NCBI GenBank assembly: GCA_964230645.1
Contig: CAXRHT010000002.1
Span: 512,001-576,000, forward strand
Source: Bdellovibrionales bacterium
Lineage (GTDB): Bacteria; Bdellovibrionota; Bdellovibrionia; Bdellovibrionales; JAGQZY01
DNA length: 64,000 nt
Direction of reading: 5' to 3'
Every line of letters begins with the position of its first letter. The first letter of the stretch is position 1. Below are positions 45,090-58,133 of the stretch, in pieces. The notes beneath the pieces were generated by a model, which worked only from the letters and a program-made list of their open reading frames with translations, did no database searches and was not told the DNA's origin. Both the position numbers and the translations under genes were made by a program.

Positions 45090-47084
45090 TCAAAACAGCC
45101 AACGCACACCTCCCACAAAGTTTCGGCCTGGTAGTAGCACTCTATCTTTCAAGAGGGAAACATGGTTTCGAGCTTTCACATCAGCAATGTTATTCACTTG
45201 AAAATACAGTTTTAGCAATGATTCTGAAGATAGTTTGAAAGTGTAGTTAAAATCAAAATTCAAAAGATTGTAACTAGATGTCGGCGTCTCTTGGGGAGCG
45301 GTTCGAGTTTGCTCAAAAACATTTCTCCAACTTAGGGAACTGGAAATGGCTTTCCGATCAAACTGCGCACCTAACCCTAGACGAATGGGAGATATCTGCG
45401 GCAAGGGTTCGTCGGTGGCCAGATTTTGACCATAAAGGTAATCCGCTGTGAATCGCAAACTCCAATAGGCATGGAGACGCTGACGCACCTCTAATTCCGC
45501 TCCATTGATTCGCGCTCTTTGCGATTGATAGTTGTATATCTCAAAGTCCTCGGGCGAATCTCCCGCGGTTCCACTCTCATCAGTATCGGCAAAAGTTCCC
45601 GAGGGATTTAAACTCACAAAGTTTGAGAACTCCTGATCAAAAACAGTGAAGCCCACATAAAAGTTTCGGGTCTTTCTTTTTATTGACCATTCTAATGCAA
45701 AGTTTGTTTCTTTTTCTAAGTCACTCTCCCCTACTTCAAAAATACCCAGAGCCAAATGGGGACCGTTGGAGAAGAGCTCTTGATAAGTGGGTGCTCTTTC
45801 ATTGTAAGAAAGATTAAAGCTAGTGGAGGTCTTTTGATTAAAACTATAAACGCCTCCAAGAGCAGCACTAGTAGTTAAAAAATCAGCGCTTTGATCCTGG
45901 GCTTGAGTGGGACCTTGATAGGCTTTTAGGTTAGTGCTCTCACCACGAAGGCCAAAGTTGAACTTAAAAGGTCTTAATTCAATTTCTTCAAAGGCAAAAA
46001 GAGCGATGGCTTCCTTGTCAGTCGTCGGTAAAAAGGCCTCTTCCCCCTGAGCGGAATACTCCAAAACTTGAGTCTGTAGGCCTAGAATTCCATGCCACCC
46101 GTCTTTATTGGCTTGGACTAATTCAACTCTTGATTCGTTACCCGTATTGTCAAAAATCGTTCCCGTCTCGCCACCTTCAAGTTCCGTGTGTTCATAGAAA
46201 GTTTGCGCAGATTTCACCCGAAGACCTGTAAAGAAGCCACTTAAACTTTTATGGCCAGCGAGATCAATACGACGTTGCTTCAGGTTGATATCAACATCAG
46301 TCTCGCTCACTACACCATAAGTATTTTCAAAAGAGGCATAAGAAACGCCCAAATAATTTTGTCGATCAAAAAAATAGGTCGAGCCAGCAGCCATGGCTCT
46401 CTGCTCGGTTTCAGAATTTTGAATTTCACCTTCCGGTGTGGCCGTGTTTCTGGCATTGGTGTACTGACCATCGACGTGAAACATCCAATCACTCACTCCG
46501 TAGTCTAATTTTCCCGAAACACTATTACCCTGGTTAACGGATTCGTATTTATCATCGAGGCCTCCATAGAGTCCTGGGAAATAGGACTTATGAATTCTTG
46601 AGTTGACGATATTAACCACTCCGCCCACAGCCGAGGAGCCGTAAAGGAGACTGATCGGCCCCCTCACAATTTCCACACTTTCTGAAGTCAGGGGATTCAT
46701 GGGAACCGCGTGATCCTCGCTAGTTCCGGAGGCATCCAGAATTCCAATTCCGTTCTGAAGAATACGAATTCTATCACCCTTAAGGCCTCGGATAACAGGT
46801 CTTGATGAGTTGGGACCAAATTGAGTGGAGTTCACTCCAAGCTCTTCTCTGAGGGTTTCACCGAGAGAGTTTTTGGCCTTCTCCATAAGCTCCTCACCAT
46901 GGAGATTGGTCACAGTGGGAATTGTATGGAGAATATCACTTCGCTCCTGGCCTCCCAGAACTTGAATGGGCCCTAGGTGGATAATGGAATCATGATGATG
47001 ATCACCATCCTCAGTGTGCTCCTCTTGAGCGTGAACAGAAAAAACGGACAGAAATACGGCTGAAATTAAAATAAATTGAGTCAT
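45090..47084 (-). CDS. TonB-dependent receptor, ZnuD-like (probable start ATG 47084)
   Basis: His-rich N-terminus HTEDGDHHHD; SRPVIRG, DHAV and EIVRGPISLLYGSSAVGGVVN motifs; C-terminal LPGRNF..GVRWLF. Confidence 0.9.
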   Translation of the reverse strand: MTQFILISAVFLSVFSVHAQEEHTEDGDHHHDSIIHLGPIQVLGGQERSDILHTIPTVTNLHGEELMEKAKNSLGETLREELGVNSTQFGPNSSRPVIRGLKGDRIRILQNGIGILDASGTSEDHAVPMNPLTSESVEIVRGPISLLYGSSAVGGVVNIVNSRIHKSYFPGLYGGLDDKYESVNQGNSVSGKLDYGVSDWMFHVDGQYTNARNTATPEGEIQNSETEQRAMAAGSTYFFDRQNYLGVSYASFENTYGVVSETDVDINLKQRRIDLAGHKSLSGFFTGLRVKSAQTFYEHTELEGGETGTIFDNTGNESRVELVQANKDGWHGILGLQTQVLEYSAQGEEAFLPTTDKEAIALFAFEEIELRPFKFNFGLRGESTNLKAYQGPTQAQDQSADFLTTSAALGGVYSFNQKTSTSFNLSYNERAPTYQELFSNGPHLALGIFEVGESDLEKETNFALEWSIKRKTRNFYVGFTVFDQEFSNFVSLNPSGTFADTDESGTAGDSPEDFEIYNYQSQRARINGAELEVRQRLHAYWSLRFTADYLYGQNLATDEPLPQISPIRLGLGAQFDRKAISSSLSWRNVFEQTRTAPQETPTSSYNLLNFDFNYTFKLSSESLLKLYFQVNNIADVKARNHVSLLKDRVLLPGRNFVGGVRWLF

Positions 47085-47094
47085 AGAGTCTTGT

Positions 47095-47142
47095 TGCAAT
47101 ACTTTTGCATTAAGGTCTAGACTTTTTTGCAAATATGTTGCA
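47095..47142. promoter_or_regulatory. Two TGCAA-N5-TTGCA palindromes (putative Fur-family operators)
   Basis: TGCAATACTTTTGCA at 47095-47109 and TGCAAATATGTTGCA at 47128-47142, in a 69-bp divergent intergenic region. Confidence 0.7.
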
Positions 47143-47153
47143 ATAAGTTATTT

Positions 47154-47753
47154 ATGAAATGGTCACTCCCATTAAGCCTTATATTGCATGGACTTCTGGT
47201 ACTCCCCTTTTTTTGGCCCCAAAGTAAAGAACCCACCTATAGCCAGGTTTCAACCATAGAACTTCTAGGGGCTCCGGCCCACAAACAAAAAAAGAGAGCG
47301 AAAAAAGTGCGGGGCTCAAAAAAGGTGAAAAAGCCAAAAGAAAAGAAAGAACAGGATTTTGCCAAATCCAGTGAAAGCACTCCGAAAGAGGGAAATGCCG
47401 AGGTCGACGCTCCCGAAATCGAAGGGGGGTCTCAGAGCGGAGGAACACGCTTGACCGTCGTAGCCCAGTACGCTCAAGACTTGCAACTCTTTATTGAGAA
47501 AAACAGATACTATCCCAGACGCGCCCTTGTAATGGAACAAACCGGAGTGGTTAAAGTAAAACTCACGATAGATGCTCAAGGCCATTTTACGGAAGTGGAG
47601 GTGGTAGAACCTTCCTCCCACGAGATTTTAAACCGAGCGGCAAAGAATCTAGTGACCGATTTGAGAAAATTTAAACCCCTGCCTTCCGTTTATCGAGGTA
47701 ATGGCACTTTCGTCATTCCTATTAACTACCAACTACAAAACTCAGGAATATAA
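47154..47753 (+). CDS. tonB: Energy transducer TonB
   Basis: SLILH TM motif; Lys-rich linker; YPRRA...QTGVV...SSHEILNRAA C-terminal domain. Confidence 0.88.
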   Translation: MKWSLPLSLILHGLLVLPFFWPQSKEPTYSQVSTIELLGAPAHKQKKRAKKVRGSKKVKKPKEKKEQDFAKSSESTPKEGNAEVDAPEIEGGSQSGGTRLTVVAQYAQDLQLFIEKNRYYPRRALVMEQTGVVKVKLTIDAQGHFTEVEVVEPSSHEILNRAAKNLVTDLRKFKPLPSVYRGNGTFVIPINYQLQNSGI

Positions 47754-47755
47754 TA

Positions 47756-48193
47756 ATGAACTTTGAAGAGTTAGAAAATCGATTGAGAGATAAAAAGATG
47801 CGAGTGACCCAGGCTCGAAAAGAAATCTTCTCCTTGTTACAAAAAAGCTCGAAATCTCTCACGCCCAAAGAAATTTTTGAGCAAATCAAAACCAGCAGTG
47901 GCACGGATTTAGCCTCCGTTTATCGTAACCTCACTTTGTTTCAAGAGATGGGGCTGGCTCACCGCTTTCAGGATGGTAGCTTCTCTAATTGCCATCACGA
48001 CCATCACGAACAAGATGGCCATCGACATATCCATTTTATTAGTCATTGCGTGGAATGTGGAAAAAAAGACGAGATTCAAAGTCACTCTAAAAAAGTTTGT
48101 TCGCTAGCTAATGAGATCGGCAAACTGAGCCACACTCTCACAACCCTAAACGAGGTTGTGGTTCAAGGACTTTGTACTAAATGCGATAAATAA
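47756..48193 (+). CDS. Fur-family metalloregulator (Zur-like)
   Basis: RVTQAR, ASVYRNL, His-rich loop, HFISHCVECG and GLCTKC motifs. Confidence 0.9.
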   Translation: MNFEELENRLRDKKMRVTQARKEIFSLLQKSSKSLTPKEIFEQIKTSSGTDLASVYRNLTLFQEMGLAHRFQDGSFSNCHHDHHEQDGHRHIHFISHCVECGKKDEIQSHSKKVCSLANEIGKLSHTLTTLNEVVVQGLCTKCDK

Positions 48194-51332: not shown

Positions 51333-51361
51333 TTGACAGTATGATGCGTGAGCAGTAATCT
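51333..51361 (+). promoter_or_regulatory. Sigma70-type promoter giving a probable leaderless transcript
   Basis: TTGACA (51333-51338), 17-nt spacer, TAATCT (51356-51361); ATG begins at 51368 with no RBS. Confidence 0.6.
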
Positions 51362-51367
51362 AAAACT

Positions 51368-51694
51368 ATGTTTTTCGATACTCGGAAACCCCTTTTATGG
51401 ATCTTCTTTGCCGCCATTTTGATGGTGAGTTTTGGCCCCACTCTGGCCAAAGTTCTTGAGAAGCGCCCGCTTAAATCAGCGCCTCTATCAAAGCTTGAGA
51501 CTTCCGTAGAGATAGAAAAAGAAAGCAGTGAAAAGGACGACTTTTCAGAATCCTTTGATTGGGACCTAAGCTTTCCAATCGACTCTCTCAAATTTGAGTT
51601 TATAAAAACCACTCTAGGTTTTGAAAATTTAATAATCATCCATAAAAATTCGTATCTTGGTTATTTTTTAAGAGCCCCTCCCTTTATCCAATAG
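51368..51694 (+). CDS. Exported leader peptide ending in the RAPP arrest motif
   Basis: N-terminal signal/TM segment, charged linker, C-terminal ...YFLRAPPFIQ*. Confidence 0.7.
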   Translation: MFFDTRKPLLWIFFAAILMVSFGPTLAKVLEKRPLKSAPLSKLETSVEIEKESSEKDDFSESFDWDLSFPIDSLKFEFIKTTLGFENLIIIHKNSYLGYFLRAPPFIQ

Positions 51695-51767
51695 TTACCT
51701 AAATTCTTTTTTCTAATTTTTGACTTGAACTGACTGATTCACAGTCTTTGATCTATTGGAGTATTCA

Positions 51768-52748
51768 ATGTTTGAATCTTTACTGGGTAATATCACCCAT
51801 CCACCCATCCTATTTTTCTTTTTAGGAATGGTCGCTGTCCTTTTGAAATCGGACCTAAGCATTCCGCCTGCTATTGGAAAATTTTTCTCCATCTACCTTT
51901 TGTTTGATATCGGCCTGAAAGGAGGAGAGGAACTCTTTCACTCTGGAATCACCACTGAGGTCATAAAAGTGATGGCCATCTGTATGCTGCTCTCTTTTGC
52001 CGTCCCTTGGATGGTCTATAAAATTCTAAGAAAAAAATTAGATATTGAAAATTCGGGAGCGATTGCCGCCACCTATGGCAGCATCAGTGCGGTAACCTTC
52101 GCCACGGCCATTTCATTCTTAAATTCCAAGGGTATTCACTTTGGTGGTTATATGGTGGCAGGTATGGCCCTTATGGAGTCTCCTGCTATTGTCTCTGGCC
52201 TTTTATTAATCGCTATTAACTCAAAACAAGTCAGTGAATCGGGGAAAGGCATCGATTGGAAAAAAGTATTACATGAAGCTTTTTTTAATGGTTCGGTCCT
52301 TTTGCTCGTAGGCTCTCTTGTTATCGGTTATCTCGGCGGCCAACAAGGAGAAGACGAATTAGCTCCTTTCGTGAATGGCATTTTTGCCGGTATGCTCTCC
52401 CTTTATATGTTGGACATGGGACTGACCGCAGGATCTAGATTAGGCTCCTTAAAACAATCGGGCCCCTATTTGGTCGGCTTTGCTCTTATATACCCACTTG
52501 TCGGTGGAATATTAGGTATTGCCTCAGCAGCACTTATAGGACTTGATGCCGGTGACGCACTTCTTCTGACCATACTAGCAGCTAGTGCCTCCTACATCGC
52601 TGTGCCCGCAGCCATGAGAATCTCTGTGCCCAAGGCCAATATGAGCCTACTACTTCCTATGTCCCTTGGAGTCACTTTCACTTTTAATGTGACCATAGGA
52701 ATTCCACTTTTTTACTTTAGCATTGAAAAACTTTGGAGTGTTTTATGA
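51768..52748 (+). CDS. SbtA-like (DUF897) sodium-dependent bicarbonate transporter family permease
   Basis: PPILFF, KSDLSIP, IGLKGG, YGSISAVTF, MESPAI and ASASYIAVPAAMR motifs; ATG 51768 after GGAG. Confidence 0.9.
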   Translation: MFESLLGNITHPPILFFFLGMVAVLLKSDLSIPPAIGKFFSIYLLFDIGLKGGEELFHSGITTEVIKVMAICMLLSFAVPWMVYKILRKKLDIENSGAIAATYGSISAVTFATAISFLNSKGIHFGGYMVAGMALMESPAIVSGLLLIAINSKQVSESGKGIDWKKVLHEAFFNGSVLLLVGSLVIGYLGGQQGEDELAPFVNGIFAGMLSLYMLDMGLTAGSRLGSLKQSGPYLVGFALIYPLVGGILGIASAALIGLDAGDALLLTILAASASYIAVPAAMRISVPKANMSLLLPMSLGVTFTFNVTIGIPLFYFSIEKLWSVL

Positions 52749-53014
52749 AATACGAATTAAAAATTGTTCACGATCGCCTTATTTCTATTAAACTAGATGA
52801 ATGGACCAAAGAAAACCGCATTGGTGGCTACACCACACTACTCGTGCATCAGTCTTTTGGAGCTCACCATGGGCGTTTCAATCTTGACAATCTGTCAGGT
52901 GAAAAATTCTTGAGTTTGTTGTATTTTGAGGAGAATCAAGAAAATCTAGCAAGAAGAATTAAAGCTGAAATGCAGGCAGAAGACTTCTTTGTGGTCTTAT
53001 CGGAGCTGTTATGA
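52745..53014 (+). CDS. Divergent PII-like / SbtB-like small protein
   Basis: ATGA overlap with the sbtA-like stop; IGGYT...GAHHG pattern; PII size. Confidence 0.6.
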   Translation: MKYELKIVHDRLISIKLDEWTKENRIGGYTTLLVHQSFGAHHGRFNLDNLSGEKFLSLLYFEENQENLARRIKAEMQAEDFFVVLSELL

Positions 53015-53655
53015 AAAATTACGGACGCCTATTGTTGTTAATCTCTATTCTTTTAACAAGCTCATTGGGTCAAGCCGCCCGATCGAACTCTGGAATGTGG
53101 CTTGGTATTTTTCCTCATTTCAAAATAGCCGATAAGCAAAGAATTTCCCTGCAAGCCGAAGTCCGTAAGATTGGAGAGGAGCCTTTTGCACTGATCCGCC
53201 CCTCATACCACTATAATTTATCCGATTATGTGGTCCTGGGTGCCGGTTATGACCTCTTCACAGTTAGAAACACGGAGCAAAGAGTTTGGCCGGAGGTGGT
53301 CCTTAAAACCGCCTCCCCTGTTCTGAGTCAAAATCTTTCTCTTCGCATAAGGCAGGAGTTTCGCTTTATCAACAAAACGAGTGCCTCAGCCGAGCGACTA
53401 CGGGTCATGCTGCAAACCCATTTTATACTTTCACGCAAACATGGCCTGAGCGCTTTTATCTTCAACGAAGCTTTTTACTCGCAGTCCACCTTCTCAGGTG
53501 GTTCAGGAGACTTTGATCGTAACTGGTTAGGAGCCCGCATGCGCGTTCGAGGCAAAGAGGCCTACTACGAATTTGGTGGATTCTGGGAAAAGGTGAACGA
53601 CGCCACCTACTCGAGTGGCTTTGTTGGCGTGTTGTGGCTTGGTAAAAAGTTTTAA
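53011..53655 (+). CDS. DUF2490-like outer-membrane beta-barrel
   Basis: Signal peptide; EQRVWPE, RQEFRF, RLR, NEAF and FDRNW motifs; C-terminal F. Confidence 0.75.
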   Translation: MKNYGRLLLLISILLTSSLGQAARSNSGMWLGIFPHFKIADKQRISLQAEVRKIGEEPFALIRPSYHYNLSDYVVLGAGYDLFTVRNTEQRVWPEVVLKTASPVLSQNLSLRIRQEFRFINKTSASAERLRVMLQTHFILSRKHGLSAFIFNEAFYSQSTFSGGSGDFDRNWLGARMRVRGKEAYYEFGGFWEKVNDATYSSGFVGVLWLGKKF

Positions 53656-53677: not shown

Positions 53678-53833
53678 TTAAAGGGGGTCTTCCGCCGGAG
53701 AATAATGGATAGCCGGCGGACCTAAAATGTAATTTTTAACTGGATTATCAAAGCTTAAAAACACAATGAGAATAAAAACAGACAGAATAAAAGTGAGTAG
53801 AAGAGACTGTATTATTTTTCTTTTCTTACTCAC
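53678..53833 (-). CDS. Unannotated 51-aa single-TM protein coupled to the RND gene
   Basis: GTG overlaps the RND TGA (GTGA); GAGGGAG RBS; MSKKRKIIQSLLLTFILSVFILIVFLSFDNPVKNYILGPPAIHYSPAEDPL. Confidence 0.6.
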   Translation of the reverse strand: MSKKRKIIQSLLLTFILSVFILIVFLSFDNPVKNYILGPPAIHYSPAEDPL

Positions 53834-56800
53834 TTCTCTCCCTCTTCTCGAATGACGACCCTTTTAGGTTTTATAAGAAGGTGGGCACAAGGCACCAAAT
53901 ACAGAGTGAAGAATGTCGAGAGTAGCACCCCACCGAGCACGGTAAGAGCCATCGGTACCCGCGTCTCACTTCCCGGGCCATAGGAAAGGGCTGGGGGCAC
54001 AGCGGCTGCAAGTGTCGCTGTTGTGGTCATTAAAATCGGACGAAGTCTTGTTGGACAGGCCTCTTTAAGAGCGTTAGCGAGTGTTTGCCCTTGATCTCTT
54101 AATTGATTGGTGAACTCCACAAGTAAGATTGAGTTCTTTTTAACAATTCCCATGGTCAGTAGAATTCCGATCGCACTATAAACATTCAATGACTGCCCCC
54201 CAAGGACCAGGCCAATAAACGAGCCTGTAAGACCAAAGGGAATGGCTATAAACACAATCATTGGATCAATAAAGGAGTTAAATTGAATGGCTAAAACCAT
54301 ATAGGCAATCACTAGACCTAAAAGCATAATAAGGACTGTTTCTAAGAGTTTGCTCTCTGGTGTCTCGTCAAAACGCACATAGTAATCCTCTGGCAGAACA
54401 TCACTGGCAATTTTTCGTACAGCACTGACGGCCTCCCCTAGGCGCACACCTTGTGCTAAGTCAGAGTCCACCCTGAGGCCACGAATACGATCTTCGCGGT
54501 AAATTTGTTGAGGACCTTCGGTTTCAATGACATCGACTACTTCGGTAAGACGCAAAAGCTCTCCCCGATTGTTGCGAATCAAAATTTTACTTAAATCCTC
54601 TTTTCTCTGCCTGTCCTCTTCTTGAAGCTGCACCCAAATATCAAAACGACGGTTACGATCCGTATACTGTCCAGCGACCGTCCCTCCAAAGGTGGCATTG
54701 ACGATATTAGCAATTTCGCTCACCTCTACCCCTCGGGATATTCCCTTTTCTCGGTTGGGCTGAACGTGAACCTCAGGGAGAGTGAGAACATCATCACTTC
54801 TTGTCCCGACCATGAGGTCGGTCGCAAGCATCTTTTTTTGAATTTCGAAAAAATACTCTTTTTGTTTTTCAGGGTCAGGGCCGTTGATGGTAAATTCCAG
54901 AGGACTTCCTCGGCGACCTTGGAAGGGACCACCCGAGCGATCGCGAATAAAAAACTTCATATCCTCTATGGACTTTACTTTTTCGCGCAGATCGGCCCCC
55001 ACTTCAAATTGGCTCAGACTGCGCTCTTCCCGATTTTTTAAAACCACAATTCCAATCCCCCGATTAGATTGCCCTCCGCGCCCAAAGCCTCCGACCGCCA
55101 TATAATAGCGATCAACAGCGGGGTGTTTTGAGACAATGGCTTCAAATTCTTTGACCTTACGTCCAGTGTAGTCAAGGGAGCTACCATCAGGGGCCTGGAA
55201 GCTTGTAAATAAAATTCCGGTGTCTTGTGGTGGAGCAAATTCAGTGGGTAGGACTTTAATAAAGTAAAGAGATCCAACAAAGACAAGAATCGAAGTGACT
55301 ATAGGCATCCACGGTCGAGCCAAACAAGCATTGAGTGTTCGACTGTAAAAGCGAGTCAATCCTTCCATGGTTTTCTCAAAGAACCTTCCAAACCAAGTGG
55401 TTCGCTCTTCGAGTTTTAAAAACTGGGAGCAACGCATAGGCGCAAGAGTGAGAGCTTCTAGAGAACTCAAACAAACAGCGACAGCAATCGTCACGGCAAA
55501 TTCAAAAAAGAAACGACCCTCAATAGAATTCATAAAAGTAATGGGCACAAAAATCGATACCAAGGCTGCGGTGGTCGCAATCACAGCAAAAGAAATTTCT
55601 CTAGAACCTTTAAAAGCCGCGTTGATGCGATCCCACCCCATTTGCATATAGCGCACGATATTTTCGAGCATAATAATGGCATCATCAACGACCACCCCAA
55701 TAGCAAGGGCTAAACCAAGAAGGGAGAAAGTATTAAGAGTAAATCCAAAGAGCTTTATAAAAATAAAGGTTCCTATAATGGCTGTAGGAATCGCTAAAAG
55801 AATATTGATCGTGGCCGACCAAGAGCCTAGAAAAATCCAACAGACAAGAGAGGTTAAAAAAGCTGAGAGAAAAAGGGTATAAATCAGTTCATTGACCGAA
55901 TCTCGAATAAACTGGGTGCGATCAAAATTGATATCAAGGACCGTTCCCTCAGGAAGGTCTTTATTGATTTCTTTGATCCTTTGTTTGACTAGATCCGCTG
56001 TAGCCACAGCGTTGACTCCCGTTTGCTTTTGAACGGCCATCCCTAGAGCCCGGCGTCCATTGAAACGCGAAGTTCGTCGAAGATTCTCAATACCTTCATA
56101 AACTTGGGCCACATCTTTTAATCGAAGATCCAAATAATTAGGCACTCCCCCACGGCGAGAGATCACCATATTTTCAAACTCGTCGACCTTCTCGGCCTCC
56201 CCCATAAGTCTCATATTTTTTTCTTGGTCTTTGAATTCGAGTCGACCGGCAGGAAGCTCCTGATGCTCTCTTGCCACACTACTAACGATGTCACCAGCTG
56301 TGAGCTGATAGCGGCGCAATTTCTCGGCGTTCAAATCGACTCTTAAAAGAGGTTCATGATATCCAAAGGCTCTCGTCTCGGCTACACCCTCAACCGTTGA
56401 TATGCGGTCTCTAATACGGTCTCGATAAAGAATCATAAGCTCACGGTCACTCAGGGTGTCGGAACTCACGTTTAAATACATGAGCGGCTCATCGGCAGCA
56501 TTGGATTTTGTCACAACAGGCGGATCAACTGCATCCGGTAACTCCCTTTGCGCTCTTCCCAGCAAGGTTTGAACTTCTTGCAGAGCAAAATCAATATCTC
56601 GATCGATATTAAATTCTAACGTAATGTTGGCTGTTCCCCGATCAGCCGTAGCCGTTATATTGCGAATGCCTTCCATAGACACCAGAACATTCTCGGCACT
56701 TTCAATCACATCTTTTTCGATAATTTCTGGAGTGGCACCGTCGTAGCCGTAACTAATTGTGATTGTGGGAAAGTCCACATCAGGGTTGTCATTGATTCCA

Positions 56801-56895
56801 ATGGTTCGAAAGGAGATGGCGCCGAAAAAAATTAGGGCGAACATTATAATCCAGGCAAAAACAGGACGGCGGATTGAAAGACTCGACAGACTCAA
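53830..56895 (-). CDS. RND transporter (AcrB/MdtBC family)
   Basis: SIRRPV, GVVVDDAIIMLENI, GIVKKNSILLVEF and RLRPILMT motifs. Confidence 0.95.
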   Translation of the reverse strand: MSLSSLSIRRPVFAWIIMFALIFFGAISFRTIGINDNPDVDFPTITISYGYDGATPEIIEKDVIESAENVLVSMEGIRNITATADRGTANITLEFNIDRDIDFALQEVQTLLGRAQRELPDAVDPPVVTKSNAADEPLMYLNVSSDTLSDRELMILYRDRIRDRISTVEGVAETRAFGYHEPLLRVDLNAEKLRRYQLTAGDIVSSVAREHQELPAGRLEFKDQEKNMRLMGEAEKVDEFENMVISRRGGVPNYLDLRLKDVAQVYEGIENLRRTSRFNGRRALGMAVQKQTGVNAVATADLVKQRIKEINKDLPEGTVLDINFDRTQFIRDSVNELIYTLFLSAFLTSLVCWIFLGSWSATINILLAIPTAIIGTFIFIKLFGFTLNTFSLLGLALAIGVVVDDAIIMLENIVRYMQMGWDRINAAFKGSREISFAVIATTAALVSIFVPITFMNSIEGRFFFEFAVTIAVAVCLSSLEALTLAPMRCSQFLKLEERTTWFGRFFEKTMEGLTRFYSRTLNACLARPWMPIVTSILVFVGSLYFIKVLPTEFAPPQDTGILFTSFQAPDGSSLDYTGRKVKEFEAIVSKHPAVDRYYMAVGGFGRGGQSNRGIGIVVLKNREERSLSQFEVGADLREKVKSIEDMKFFIRDRSGGPFQGRRGSPLEFTINGPDPEKQKEYFFEIQKKMLATDLMVGTRSDDVLTLPEVHVQPNREKGISRGVEVSEIANIVNATFGGTVAGQYTDRNRRFDIWVQLQEEDRQRKEDLSKILIRNNRGELLRLTEVVDVIETEGPQQIYREDRIRGLRVDSDLAQGVRLGEAVSAVRKIASDVLPEDYYVRFDETPESKLLETVLIMLLGLVIAYMVLAIQFNSFIDPMIVFIAIPFGLTGSFIGLVLGGQSLNVYSAIGILLTMGIVKKNSILLVEFTNQLRDQGQTLANALKEACPTRLRPILMTTTATLAAAVPPALSYGPGSETRVPMALTVLGGVLLSTFFTLYLVPCAHLLIKPKRVVIREEGEK

Positions 56896-58133
56896 CGGAC
56901 ACGTCCTTTGGGGATGTCACCCACCAGGGCTTTCATTTGGGCCCATGTCATTTTCGTTTCAAAAATCTGTTGGGAGTAGGTTTTTCTAACGGCCAAGTAA
57001 TTGTCTAGAACTTGCAAAGCGTCCAGATCACTGACAAGTCCTCGGTCGGCTTCTTTTTGATGTTCTTGATAATTTTTCCGGGCCACTTTAACGGCCTCTT
57101 CAAACTGGTTCAAAGTTTTTTGATGGAGGAAGAATTGTTCTTTTAAAGAATCAAACTCAATTCGTTGTGAGCGTTTGATATCCACCAATTGAGCTTTGAT
57201 TTGTTTGGCCTGAAGTTTTCGAATTTGAATTTCTGAGGAATCGTTTCCTCCCTCATAGAGCTCCCACCTTGCATTGAGGGTAATATCCCAAGAGGAGTCC
57301 TGCAAAATCCCCGCGCGGTCTAAATAATAGTTGGCATTAGCATCCACTGTAGGAAGGTAAGAGCCTCGAGCGGAGGCAACCGCCCGCTCAGCATTTTCTA
57401 ATAAAATTTCTGTGGCTTTAACTTGCGGTGTTTCCCCAATCTGATTCTCCCAATTGTTTTTATAAGAGATTTTCCCGGGGTCTTGGTAATCAATCAGTTG
57501 AGGCTTTGTCTCTAACCCACAAAGAGTCTTCAGCTGATTAATGAAAACAATTTTTTGCCTTTCACTTTGTGATCTCTCCGCCAAAATTCGAGAAAGTTGA
57601 GACTGAGCGGCCAGAAGTTCGGTGGGTTTACTGCGTCCAATATTCACTCGGGACTTAAGAGTTCGAACTCGGTCCCTTAGAGACTTTTCCTGATCCAAAT
57701 AAATTTCCACGTCTTTCTGGGCCCGAAGGGCTTGATAAAAAGCCTGGGCCACCTGGGCAAAGAGAAGACGCAATTGCCTTCTCTTTTCTAACTCAGCAAT
57801 CTTGGGAAGCCTTTTGGCAATAGCAAGGTTGTAGTACTCCGAGCCCCCCTGAAACAGGGGTTGCGAGAGTGAAAGAAAAGCGGTGTGCTGGTAGGCTTCA
57901 CCAAAAGGACCCACATCCGCTTGATCTCGCCATACATTATTGGAGTTTGCTGATATGGTGGGAAGGACTTGAGCGTAGGCCTGATCTTTTTGTTCTTCAG
58001 CAATCTCAGTGGCCCACTCTCTTTCCCGAATGGTGGCTGTATTTTCAACGGCCGCCTGAAAAAAATCCTCGAGCGTTTGCGCCTCACCCCTCAGAGTCAC
58101 CCACTGTAAAAGAACCAGGAAAAAAGCAAACAT
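56892..58133 (-). CDS. TolC-family outer-membrane channel
   Basis: LPTIS, LSQPLFQG, YLPTVD and WELYEGG motifs; overlaps the RND start. Confidence 0.9.
   Translation of the reverse strand: MFAFFLVLLQWVTLRGEAQTLEDFFQAAVENTATIREREWATEIAEEQKDQAYAQVLPTISANSNNVWRDQADVGPFGEAYQHTAFLSLSQPLFQGGSEYYNLAIAKRLPKIAELEKRRQLRLLFAQVAQAFYQALRAQKDVEIYLDQEKSLRDRVRTLKSRVNIGRSKPTELLAAQSQLSRILAERSQSERQKIVFINQLKTLCGLETKPQLIDYQDPGKISYKNNWENQIGETPQVKATEILLENAERAVASARGSYLPTVDANANYYLDRAGILQDSSWDITLNARWELYEGGNDSSEIQIRKLQAKQIKAQLVDIKRSQRIEFDSLKEQFFLHQKTLNQFEEAVKVARKNYQEHQKEADRGLVSDLDALQVLDNYLAVRKTYSQQIFETKMTWAQMKALVGDIPKGRVR

Follow-up and report, generated by a model that had tools for sequence, protein, structure and literature searches.

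A candidate RAPP-type arrest leader with an acidic patch precedes an SbtA-like transporter operon in a Bdellovibrionales bacterium

Small secretory upstream open reading frames (ORFs) ending in RAPP or RGPP (Fujiwara et al. 2025, PMC12992588) are among the described systems closest to the element considered here, a 108-aa leader ORF directly before SbtA-like, likely SbtB-like and DUF2490 genes in a Bdellovibrionales bacterium (assembly GCA_964230645.1, contig CAXRHT010000002.1, positions 512,001 to 576,000; this whole 64,000-nucleotide stretch is called the window below). Like those ORFs, the leader is small, begins with a predicted export signal, carries a C-terminal RAPP and directly precedes a transporter operon. 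RAPP leaders have been described before many kinds of transporter, and the top-30 table of downstream genes contains cation:proton antiporters and ubiquinol oxidases (PMC12992588, in part; here and below, "in part" limits a statement to the portion of the source that was available). SbtA does not appear in that table; the supplement was available in part, and an SbtA entry there is possible. The main text of that article makes no mention of SbtA, bicarbonate, carbonic anhydrase, acidic residues or membrane potential, and its raw list (in part) holds at least 15 SulP rows that the text does not discuss.

With CruR of Bordetella and CutF of Rhodobacter the leader would share an export signal, a sensor outside the tunnel, a Pro-Pro stall and a logic in which stalling turns the downstream genes on; CruR arrest blocks Rho termination (PMC9426467, in part) and CutF opens a Shine-Dalgarno (SD) stem-loop (10.1101/2025.02.05.636593, in part). 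The leader differs from both in that it contains no Cys (neither CXXC nor CxxxC) and no DUF2946, has carboxylates in the sensor position and precedes carbon-uptake-type genes. SecM, ApdA, ApdP and VemP have a RAPP-like stall that is released by pull during export and, in the available part of the literature, VemP reports Na+ supply indirectly via SecDF1. Unlike in those systems, the next gene here belongs to Sbt_1 and not to secA, secDF or yidC, which argues against direct feedback on the export machine, and a fixed acidic patch is not described for those monitors in the portions of the sources available. In the engineered LepB-SecM constructs (Ismail et al. 2015, as summarised in 10.1101/310698, in part, and cited in PMC7886326, in part) an acidic stretch of five aspartates (D5) about 50 residues from the arrest site is pulled by the membrane potential; these are artificial reporters on a membrane-anchored LepB scaffold in Escherichia coli and not natural regulators. 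The cyanobacterial sbtA-sbtB pair shares the Pfam family and the gene order, and 17 of 176 SbtA loci have a carbonic anhydrase nearby, but the relationship to cyanobacterial SbtA is distant (E 2e-23) and the cyanobacterial loci examined have no leader-type ORF; control there involves SbtB. Cyanobacterial sbtA is also controlled by transcription factors. By analogy, the leader would resemble CruR, CutF and VemP in its working; it belongs neither to the DUF2946 leaders nor to the Sec monitors.

The leader ORF occupies 51368..51694 on the forward strand of the window. A predicted Sec signal peptide or signal anchor covers residues 1-27 (51368..51448), recognized by eye from a basic n-region, a hydrophobic core and a T-L-A end together with a hydropathy of 2.9, and RAPP (R102-P105, 51671..51682) stands three residues ahead of the stop, so that a protein well below 300 aa carries a RAPP-like motif near its C-terminus. 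On comparison with its homologue P0122 (one among three candidates; 67% identity, also 108 aa), the leader is a real gene under selection, because P0122 keeps both ends and LGYFLRAPP while the region between has diverged; the first ~40 residues are nearly identical and P0122 also ends in Gln-stop. RAPP is kept in P0122 and at locus L048 and replaced by IAPP or LPPP at L049, L051 and L138, so Pro-Pro is present in six of six leaders. LPPP is itself a described arrest motif (PMC10987492, in part), and in a RAPP stall the P site is occupied by RAP (PMC10951233, in part). Within the genome, RAPP, RGPP and RSPP are absent from ORFs of at least 250 aa (4.5, 4.9 and 5.2 expected), as reported for bacteria generally; AAPP, SAPP and LAPP are near expectation, and KAPP (2 vs 6.8 expected) and RAGP (2 vs 7.8) are also low. 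Seven short six-frame ORFs end near R[AGS]PP, of which only the leader combines a strongly hydrophobic N-terminus with a following gene, and a filter combining signal, acidic stretch and terminal motif returned the leader as the sole ORF in the 3.8-Mb genome. The leader has no Pfam match at E 0.1, DUF2946 included, and no NCBIfam family, and neither P0122 nor six other leaders have a Pfam match, to DUF2946 or otherwise, at the cut-off; the nearest named Atlas clusters, SecM_small, CzcI and DUF6769 at 0.92, serve as a lead only. A profile of six leaders searched against 1.84 billion representatives returned six proteins, one of them new (P0129), which ends in D-I-P-P-P and carries an acidic patch. 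The placement of the 108-aa ORF and its RAPP given in the preliminary description is thus correct and goes beyond chance, and its central claim, that an arrest leader with an export signal heads the operon, is supported by a design that recurs in relatives: judged from its sequence, the ORF is likely a RAPP-type ribosome-arrest leader.

The same description had placed a promoter at TTGACA-N17-TAATCT with a start near the leader ATG and no ribosome-binding site (RBS), and here too the coordinates are right: a sigma-70-like promoter can be read at 51333..51361 on the forward strand (TTGACA at 51333-38, 17 nt, TAATCT at 51356-61), with 6 nt between TAATCT and the ATG at 51368. TAATCT is a weak -10 box, and a consensus promoter scan did not list this promoter. 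Across the phylum, an arrangement of TTG-hexamer, 17 nt, second hexamer, 6-7 nt and ATG with no SD sequence is the best or joint-best fit in five of five Pro-Pro leader loci. On one relative's contig (depth 2.6) the -35 box is retained, as are both spacings (17 and 6 nt), an insertion in the spacer is balanced by a deletion, and five of the six bases preceding the ATG differ at unchanged distance; the codon changes of this contig agree with P0122. Because the spacing is kept in all five loci and on this contig, the leader mRNA is likely leaderless, with its predicted start at the leader ATG.

A wider survey drew on 150 SbtA loci that had 700 nt or more of upstream sequence, ordered by a quick tree of 124 rows from which about 60% of the metagenome and 30% of the early genome loci had been dropped at random. 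At 13 of these loci an ORF with a hydrophobic start terminates in Pro-Pro or L-[RK]-I, and 11 of the 13 fall in one 26-locus clade (SH-aLRT 92): five Pro-Pro leaders from this phylum (RAPP twice, IAPP, LPPP twice) and six from Cytophagales that end in L-K-I. The 124 loci outside the clade gave two pattern matches, neither leader-like by eye. The narrow R-x-P-P pattern was found at this locus alone among 47 SbtA loci, a metagenome scan returned mostly distant homologues (45-60%) without leaders, and no leader-type ORF precedes any cyanobacterial sbtA locus examined. Within this genome no leader stands before its own carbonic anhydrase or its three SulP genes, and none of the 29 parsed loci of this phylum has a Pro-Pro leader directly before carbonic anhydrase. 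The Cytophagales leaders (L142 (=L001), L154, L155 (=L019), L156, L161 and L162, plus L310 before SulP) are 108-147 aa long, with a signal-like start, an E/K-rich stretch, a C-terminal motif close to L-x-x-L-Y/F-x-x-L-K/R-I and no Pro-Pro; the two tested have no Pfam match, and their spacers of 110-560 nt hold several hairpins. The L-K-I end occupies the same slot as the RAPP of this leader and may be an undescribed arrest motif. As the 25 same-family genomes searched (G001-G025) contain no close copy of the sbtA clade, and its nearest homologues are in other families and Bacteroidota, the distribution suggests that the leader-operon unit has spread horizontally. On the tree, the transporter of a genome of the same phylum (G067) is identical to a protein that NCBI assigns to Bdellovibrionaceae, which places this organism probably in Bdellovibrionota. 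Separately, a short HPF/raiA-like ORF was seen by eye ahead of distant sbtA-like or carbonic anhydrase genes in several genomes of the phylum, at L040, L042 and L246.

The feature that best hints at a signal is an acidic patch, E44-D66 (51497..51565, forward strand), with 10 D/E and its densest 10-residue window centred 51.5 residues before Pro104. Comparable leaders occur outside the SbtA loci: Pro-Pro leaders stand directly before two of 29 parsed Bacteroidia carbonic-anhydrase loci, before six of 17 extended operons (all six SulP-carbonic anhydrase) and before three of 25 parsed further SulP loci (five of 30 were not parsed). These last three, found by context once the patch idea existed, have net acidic charges of 6, 8 and 10 in the region and no Cys or His there. 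A 17-leader profile run over 121 Bacteroidia genomes gave 21 matches, comprising 11 training rows, two weak matches dropped for want of a short ORF and eight new Pro-Pro ORFs, five directly before SulP, one with SulP as the second gene and two before other genes. For the 23 leaders that belong to SbtA, SulP or carbonic-anhydrase operons (P0122 counted on the strength of its homology; leaders before a Na+/H+ exchanger and an ABC transporter excluded), the densest acidic window lies 43.5-59.5 residues before the stall Pro (mean 51.1, standard deviation 4.3), while the same window measured from the signal lies at 33 plus or minus 11 residues. All 23 windows fall within 40-62 residues, whereas 1000 shuffles placed 9.1 there on average and never more than 16. 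Against leader span, the distance of the patch to the stall site gives r 0.12 and its distance to the signal r 0.92; the position of the patch tracks the stall site and not the signal. Two other ORFs with signal and acidic stretch, at L179 and L209, stand directly before carbonic anhydrase and do not end in Pro-Pro; one ends L-P-L-R-C and the other has P-P-P ~25 residues from its end.

A matched control came from czcA loci in the same genome sample, 19 of 29 parsed loci having Pro-Pro leaders. At 40-60 residues from the stall site the czcA leaders average 2.8 D/E and 3.6 Cys/His, and the carbon leaders 7.6 and 0.2; at 40-49 residues the czcA leaders have 23% Cys/His and 6% D/E, and the corresponding values for the first 14 carbon leaders are 1% and 34%. 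The czcA/cusA leaders at L261-L280 mostly end in W-Q-P-P and bear, 40-70 residues ahead of this end, Cys clusters (C-S-P-x-C-x-C-x-C-C) or stretches rich in His. By eye, 28 published ubiquinol-oxidase leaders have a hydrophobic segment and no acidic run in the patch region, and about a third of 15 published SulP rows have an acidic run that the rest do not. Scanning 1.2 Mb of three Bacteroidia genomes without regard to gene context gave four matches, of which one, a czcA leader, was convincing; this number does not allow a judgement on the specificity of acidic leaders. With no Cys in the leader and no Cys/His in its sensor window, the earlier expectation that the signal is not copper-like is borne out. 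In the LepB-SecM work the D5 segment produces a dominant pulling-force peak ~50 residues from the stall site, which drops with indole and disappears in simulations lacking membrane potential (10.1101/310698, in part). The acidic patch is a stronger feature than the RBS-covering helix discussed below and the best clue to the signal.

Because the acidic patches lie at the distance of the D5 peak, voltage-driven release of the RAPP stall is proposed. The leader would be exported co-translationally and the ribosome would stall at RAPP, turning the SbtA-like operon on, as stalling does for the next gene in every precedent consulted, CruR (PMC9426467, in part) and CutF (10.1101/2025.02.05.636593, in part) among them. 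Some 50 residues ahead of the stall, the patch would by prediction lie within the Sec channel, and there membrane voltage would pull on its carboxylates, release the arrested chain and turn the operon off. Acid outside pH would weaken that pull by lowering the voltage and protonating the patch; the direction of physiological logic we infer is that low voltage corresponds to a need for the transporter. Bicarbonate dissipates the pH gradient (PMC11350587, in part). More speculatively, bicarbonate supply and outside pH would alter how the proton-motive force divides into pH gradient and voltage, and the leader would report carbon status indirectly. Cells raise their voltage once the pH gradient has been dissipated, which would close a negative loop. 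That the leader acts as a switch is likely, and it may sense voltage or pH; the full sequence-based proposal, in which the stall is the on state and voltage on the acidic patch turns the operon off, has somewhat less than an even chance of being right. More doubtful is the generalization to a natural nascent-chain voltmeter, in which widespread leaders, re-invented with differing stall motifs, would set SbtA, SulP and carbonic-anhydrase levels in non-photosynthetic bacteria via membrane potential or outside pH. The idea that the patch binds CO2 directly was rejected on chemical grounds, as carbamates need amines.

Several observations weigh against voltage-driven release in the control of carbon uptake. 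RAPP alone is insufficient for arrest (PMC12992588, section 15), CruR functions without its export signal (PMC9426467), and an SbtA-like protein from outside the cyanobacteria conferred no bicarbonate uptake on E. coli (PMC4275256, in part); the carbonic anhydrases counted above are beta-carbonic anhydrases and lie within just those 17 of the 176 SbtA loci, as the loci were cut. By the filter used, the leader is absent at 15 of the 26 clade loci, including three of eight from this phylum, and the acidic residues of the L-K-I leaders lie 60-90 residues out, beyond the patch rule. As to the patch statistics, six of the 23 leaders came from a profile that contained acidic columns and are circular to that extent, the 40-62 window was chosen after looking, several of the 23 are kin, and two (L392 with 1, L401 with 0) are not net acidic at 40-60 residues. 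The czcA leaders have a D/E peak of their own farther out (26% at 60-69 residues), and two of the eight new profile matches precede a Na+/H+ exchanger (~450 nt away) and an ABC transporter. Metal ligands occupy the same window in CruR, so position alone would not single out voltage. The leader before the exchanger (L397:1489-1851, reverse strand), an acid-patch Pro-Pro ORF, would fit a pH or voltage signal outside carbon uptake.

The shared window leads to the first alternative, which keeps the same arrest leader and treats the acidic patch as a site for a cation (Ca2+, Mg2+, Na+ or Zn2+) outside the tunnel or in the periplasm that would alter folding or pull. The CXXC of CruR lies 45 residues from RAPP and its spacing matters (PMC9426467, section 9), CutF senses periplasmic copper via a Pro-rich stall (10.1101/2025.02.05.636593, in part), metal-efflux leaders bear Cys/His in this very window, and SbtA is Na+-coupled according to the Pfam description of Sbt_1. 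The patches, though, share only D/E density and no sequence pattern, which a bulk charge fits better than a shaped site, and have no His or Cys to aid transition-metal binding; a cation site is unlikely, though the strongest of the alternatives because of the CXXC position in CruR.

A SecM- or VemP-like export monitor, released by general Sec pull, would make the acidic residues a hydrophilic linker and the switch an 8-bp helix that sequesters the transporter RBS. Its 5' arm, TCCAATAG (51687..51694, forward strand), is the exact reverse complement of the 3' arm, CTATTGGA at 51753-60, which overlaps the GGAG RBS (51758-61); this complementarity across the stop codon and a small GACTG/CAGTC hairpin (51732..51746, forward strand, -4.2 kcal/mol, three T after) were confirmed at the coordinates first reported. 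The helix is predicted with a pair probability of about 0.6-0.97 when the folded segment takes in the RAPP codons and of 0.05 when it begins at 51683, and the overall folding z-score of the region is -0.58, unremarkable. A complement of at least 8 bp occurs in two of 116 control gene pairs of the genome, the predicted gain in RBS opening is positive in five of five loci (0.1-2.9 kcal/mol), P0122 keeps the Gln-stop end, and SecM, VemP, CutF and a RAPP-like secDF leader offer precedents. On a second low-depth relative contig no change is listed in CTATTGGAG (51753-61) and a change at 51764 breaks the competing local hairpin, which favours the helix.

The export monitor fares less well in other respects. 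Given that RAP occupies the P site at the stall, the ribosome would overlie most of the 5' arm, as had been suggested, but it would not simply free the RBS: with the arm blocked, GGAG and the ATG refold into a local hairpin (within 51753..51782, forward strand, -5.0 kcal/mol), the net gain in start-region opening is 2.0 kcal/mol, and 16 of the 116 control pairs show an equal or larger gain. The 5' arm is not conserved as such in relatives; the gains of four relatives (1.5, 2.9, 0.1 and 1.8 kcal/mol) arise via different pairings with no such helix in common, folding of 10 loci gave little or no support for a conserved one, and no alignable intergenic regions were found among the loci. Of 40 synonymous recodings at each of five loci, 7 (this locus), 16, 35, 22 and 28 do as well as the native sequence, and the Pro-Pro codons themselves yield anti-SD sequence. 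The idea of leaders with a shared helix at related SbtA loci thus holds for the Pro-Pro leaders, which recur, and not for the helix. As modelled, an 8-bp anti-RBS helix is possible and weakly supported, its predicted fold standing against a lack of conservation, recodings that do as well and an only modest excess over chance. As the export monitor also leaves the fixed distance of the patch to the stall site unexplained, it is unlikely.

How a stall would reach the operon can be separated from what releases it. A pyrimidine-rich, G-poor stretch over the stall site and stop (51674..51722, forward strand; 13 C, 23 T and 3 G in 49 nt) is a possible Rho loading site and the genome has a rho gene; the first 45 nt past the leader stop are not clearly unusual, 8% of the 116 control pairs being equally pyrimidine-rich. 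As the route for the output, blocking of Rho-type premature termination over this stretch is slightly favoured over melting of an RBS-covering structure such as the 8-bp helix, each having less than an even chance; both together or another route would account for the remainder. An intrinsic terminator at the 51732..51746 hairpin, a weak terminator-like match, was rejected, with only three T following and a scan count equal to chance.

That no signal is sensed, the ORF either encoding a small exported protein or imposing a constitutive pause whose sole role is to couple translation to operon transcription, would agree with the 15 clade loci that have no leader ORF and the lack of a family assignment, yet it sits poorly with three unrelated C-terminal motifs (RAPP/IAPP, LPPP and L-K-I) in the same slot, with ligand-matched chemistry at a fixed distance and with the avoidance of RAPP elsewhere in the proteome, and is improbable. 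A chance ORF with a chance pairing, to which the helix z-score and the six further short ORFs with R[AGS]PP close to their end, none of which precedes a gene, might point, is very improbable, the ORF part being largely refuted by P0122 and by architecture and promoter spacing conserved in relatives, and the pairing part not refuted for the helix.

The downstream genes correspond in part to the SbtA-like/SbtB-like/DUF2490 operon originally proposed. The first (51768..52748, forward strand) encodes a 326-aa transporter that matches Sbt_1 (PF05982, E 2e-115, 385.7 bits against a cut-off of 27); the distant match mentioned above is to Synechocystis SbtA structures, and the transporters P0002-P0005 are 79-82% identical to it. 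The third (53011..53655, forward strand) encodes a DUF2490 protein (Pfam E 7e-22) with a signal-like start, presumably an outer-membrane barrel. SbtB likeness of the second, an 89-aa protein (52745..53014, forward strand), is indirect, as this ORF has no Pfam match: it has 24% identity (E 1e-11) to the same-position gene at L049, whose own P-II match stays below the cut-off, and P-II clusters, at 0.84, are the nearest to it in the Atlas. Direct BLAST against the L001 neighbour gave no match and a single-sequence fold (pLDDT 41.5) was unusable; on these sequence comparisons the protein is likely SbtB/P-II-like. The stretch is contained in four runs of one study labelled marine metagenome, among which its source may be, and no RNA run is among the listed sequencing runs that contain it.

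In the literature searched, mostly open-access and in part, no description was found of an arrest peptide that controls carbon-uptake genes or senses voltage via an acidic patch, in agreement with the earlier statement that none was known for a bicarbonate-transporter operon, and charge pulled by membrane potential was found described only for engineered constructs. New here are SbtA as a transporter family behind candidate leaders, three putative stall motifs in one clade, the putative leaderless promoter and the comparison with metal leaders as a matched control. What supplies the force that frees RAPP leaders before non-export genes is named as an open question in PMC12992588 (section 15); should the voltage-driven release proposed here be true, membrane potential pulling charge would be an answer for one leader class. 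It would also show carbon-uptake control in heterotrophs without a cyanobacterial-type low-CO2 regulator and give a portable 100-codon voltage or pH reporter. The metal-leader comparison suggests a rule by which the residues 40-60 before the stall site may reveal the kind of signal in uncharacterised leaders.

Convergent on the sbtA operon, an RND efflux pump and a TolC-like gene lie at 53830-58133 of the window (reverse strand); neither between the two nor next to them is there a gene for a periplasmic adaptor. On the other side, at 45090-48193, a TonB-dependent receptor with a His/acid-rich N-terminus is divergent from TonB and a His-rich Fur-family regulator, which together are likely a zinc-uptake unit.

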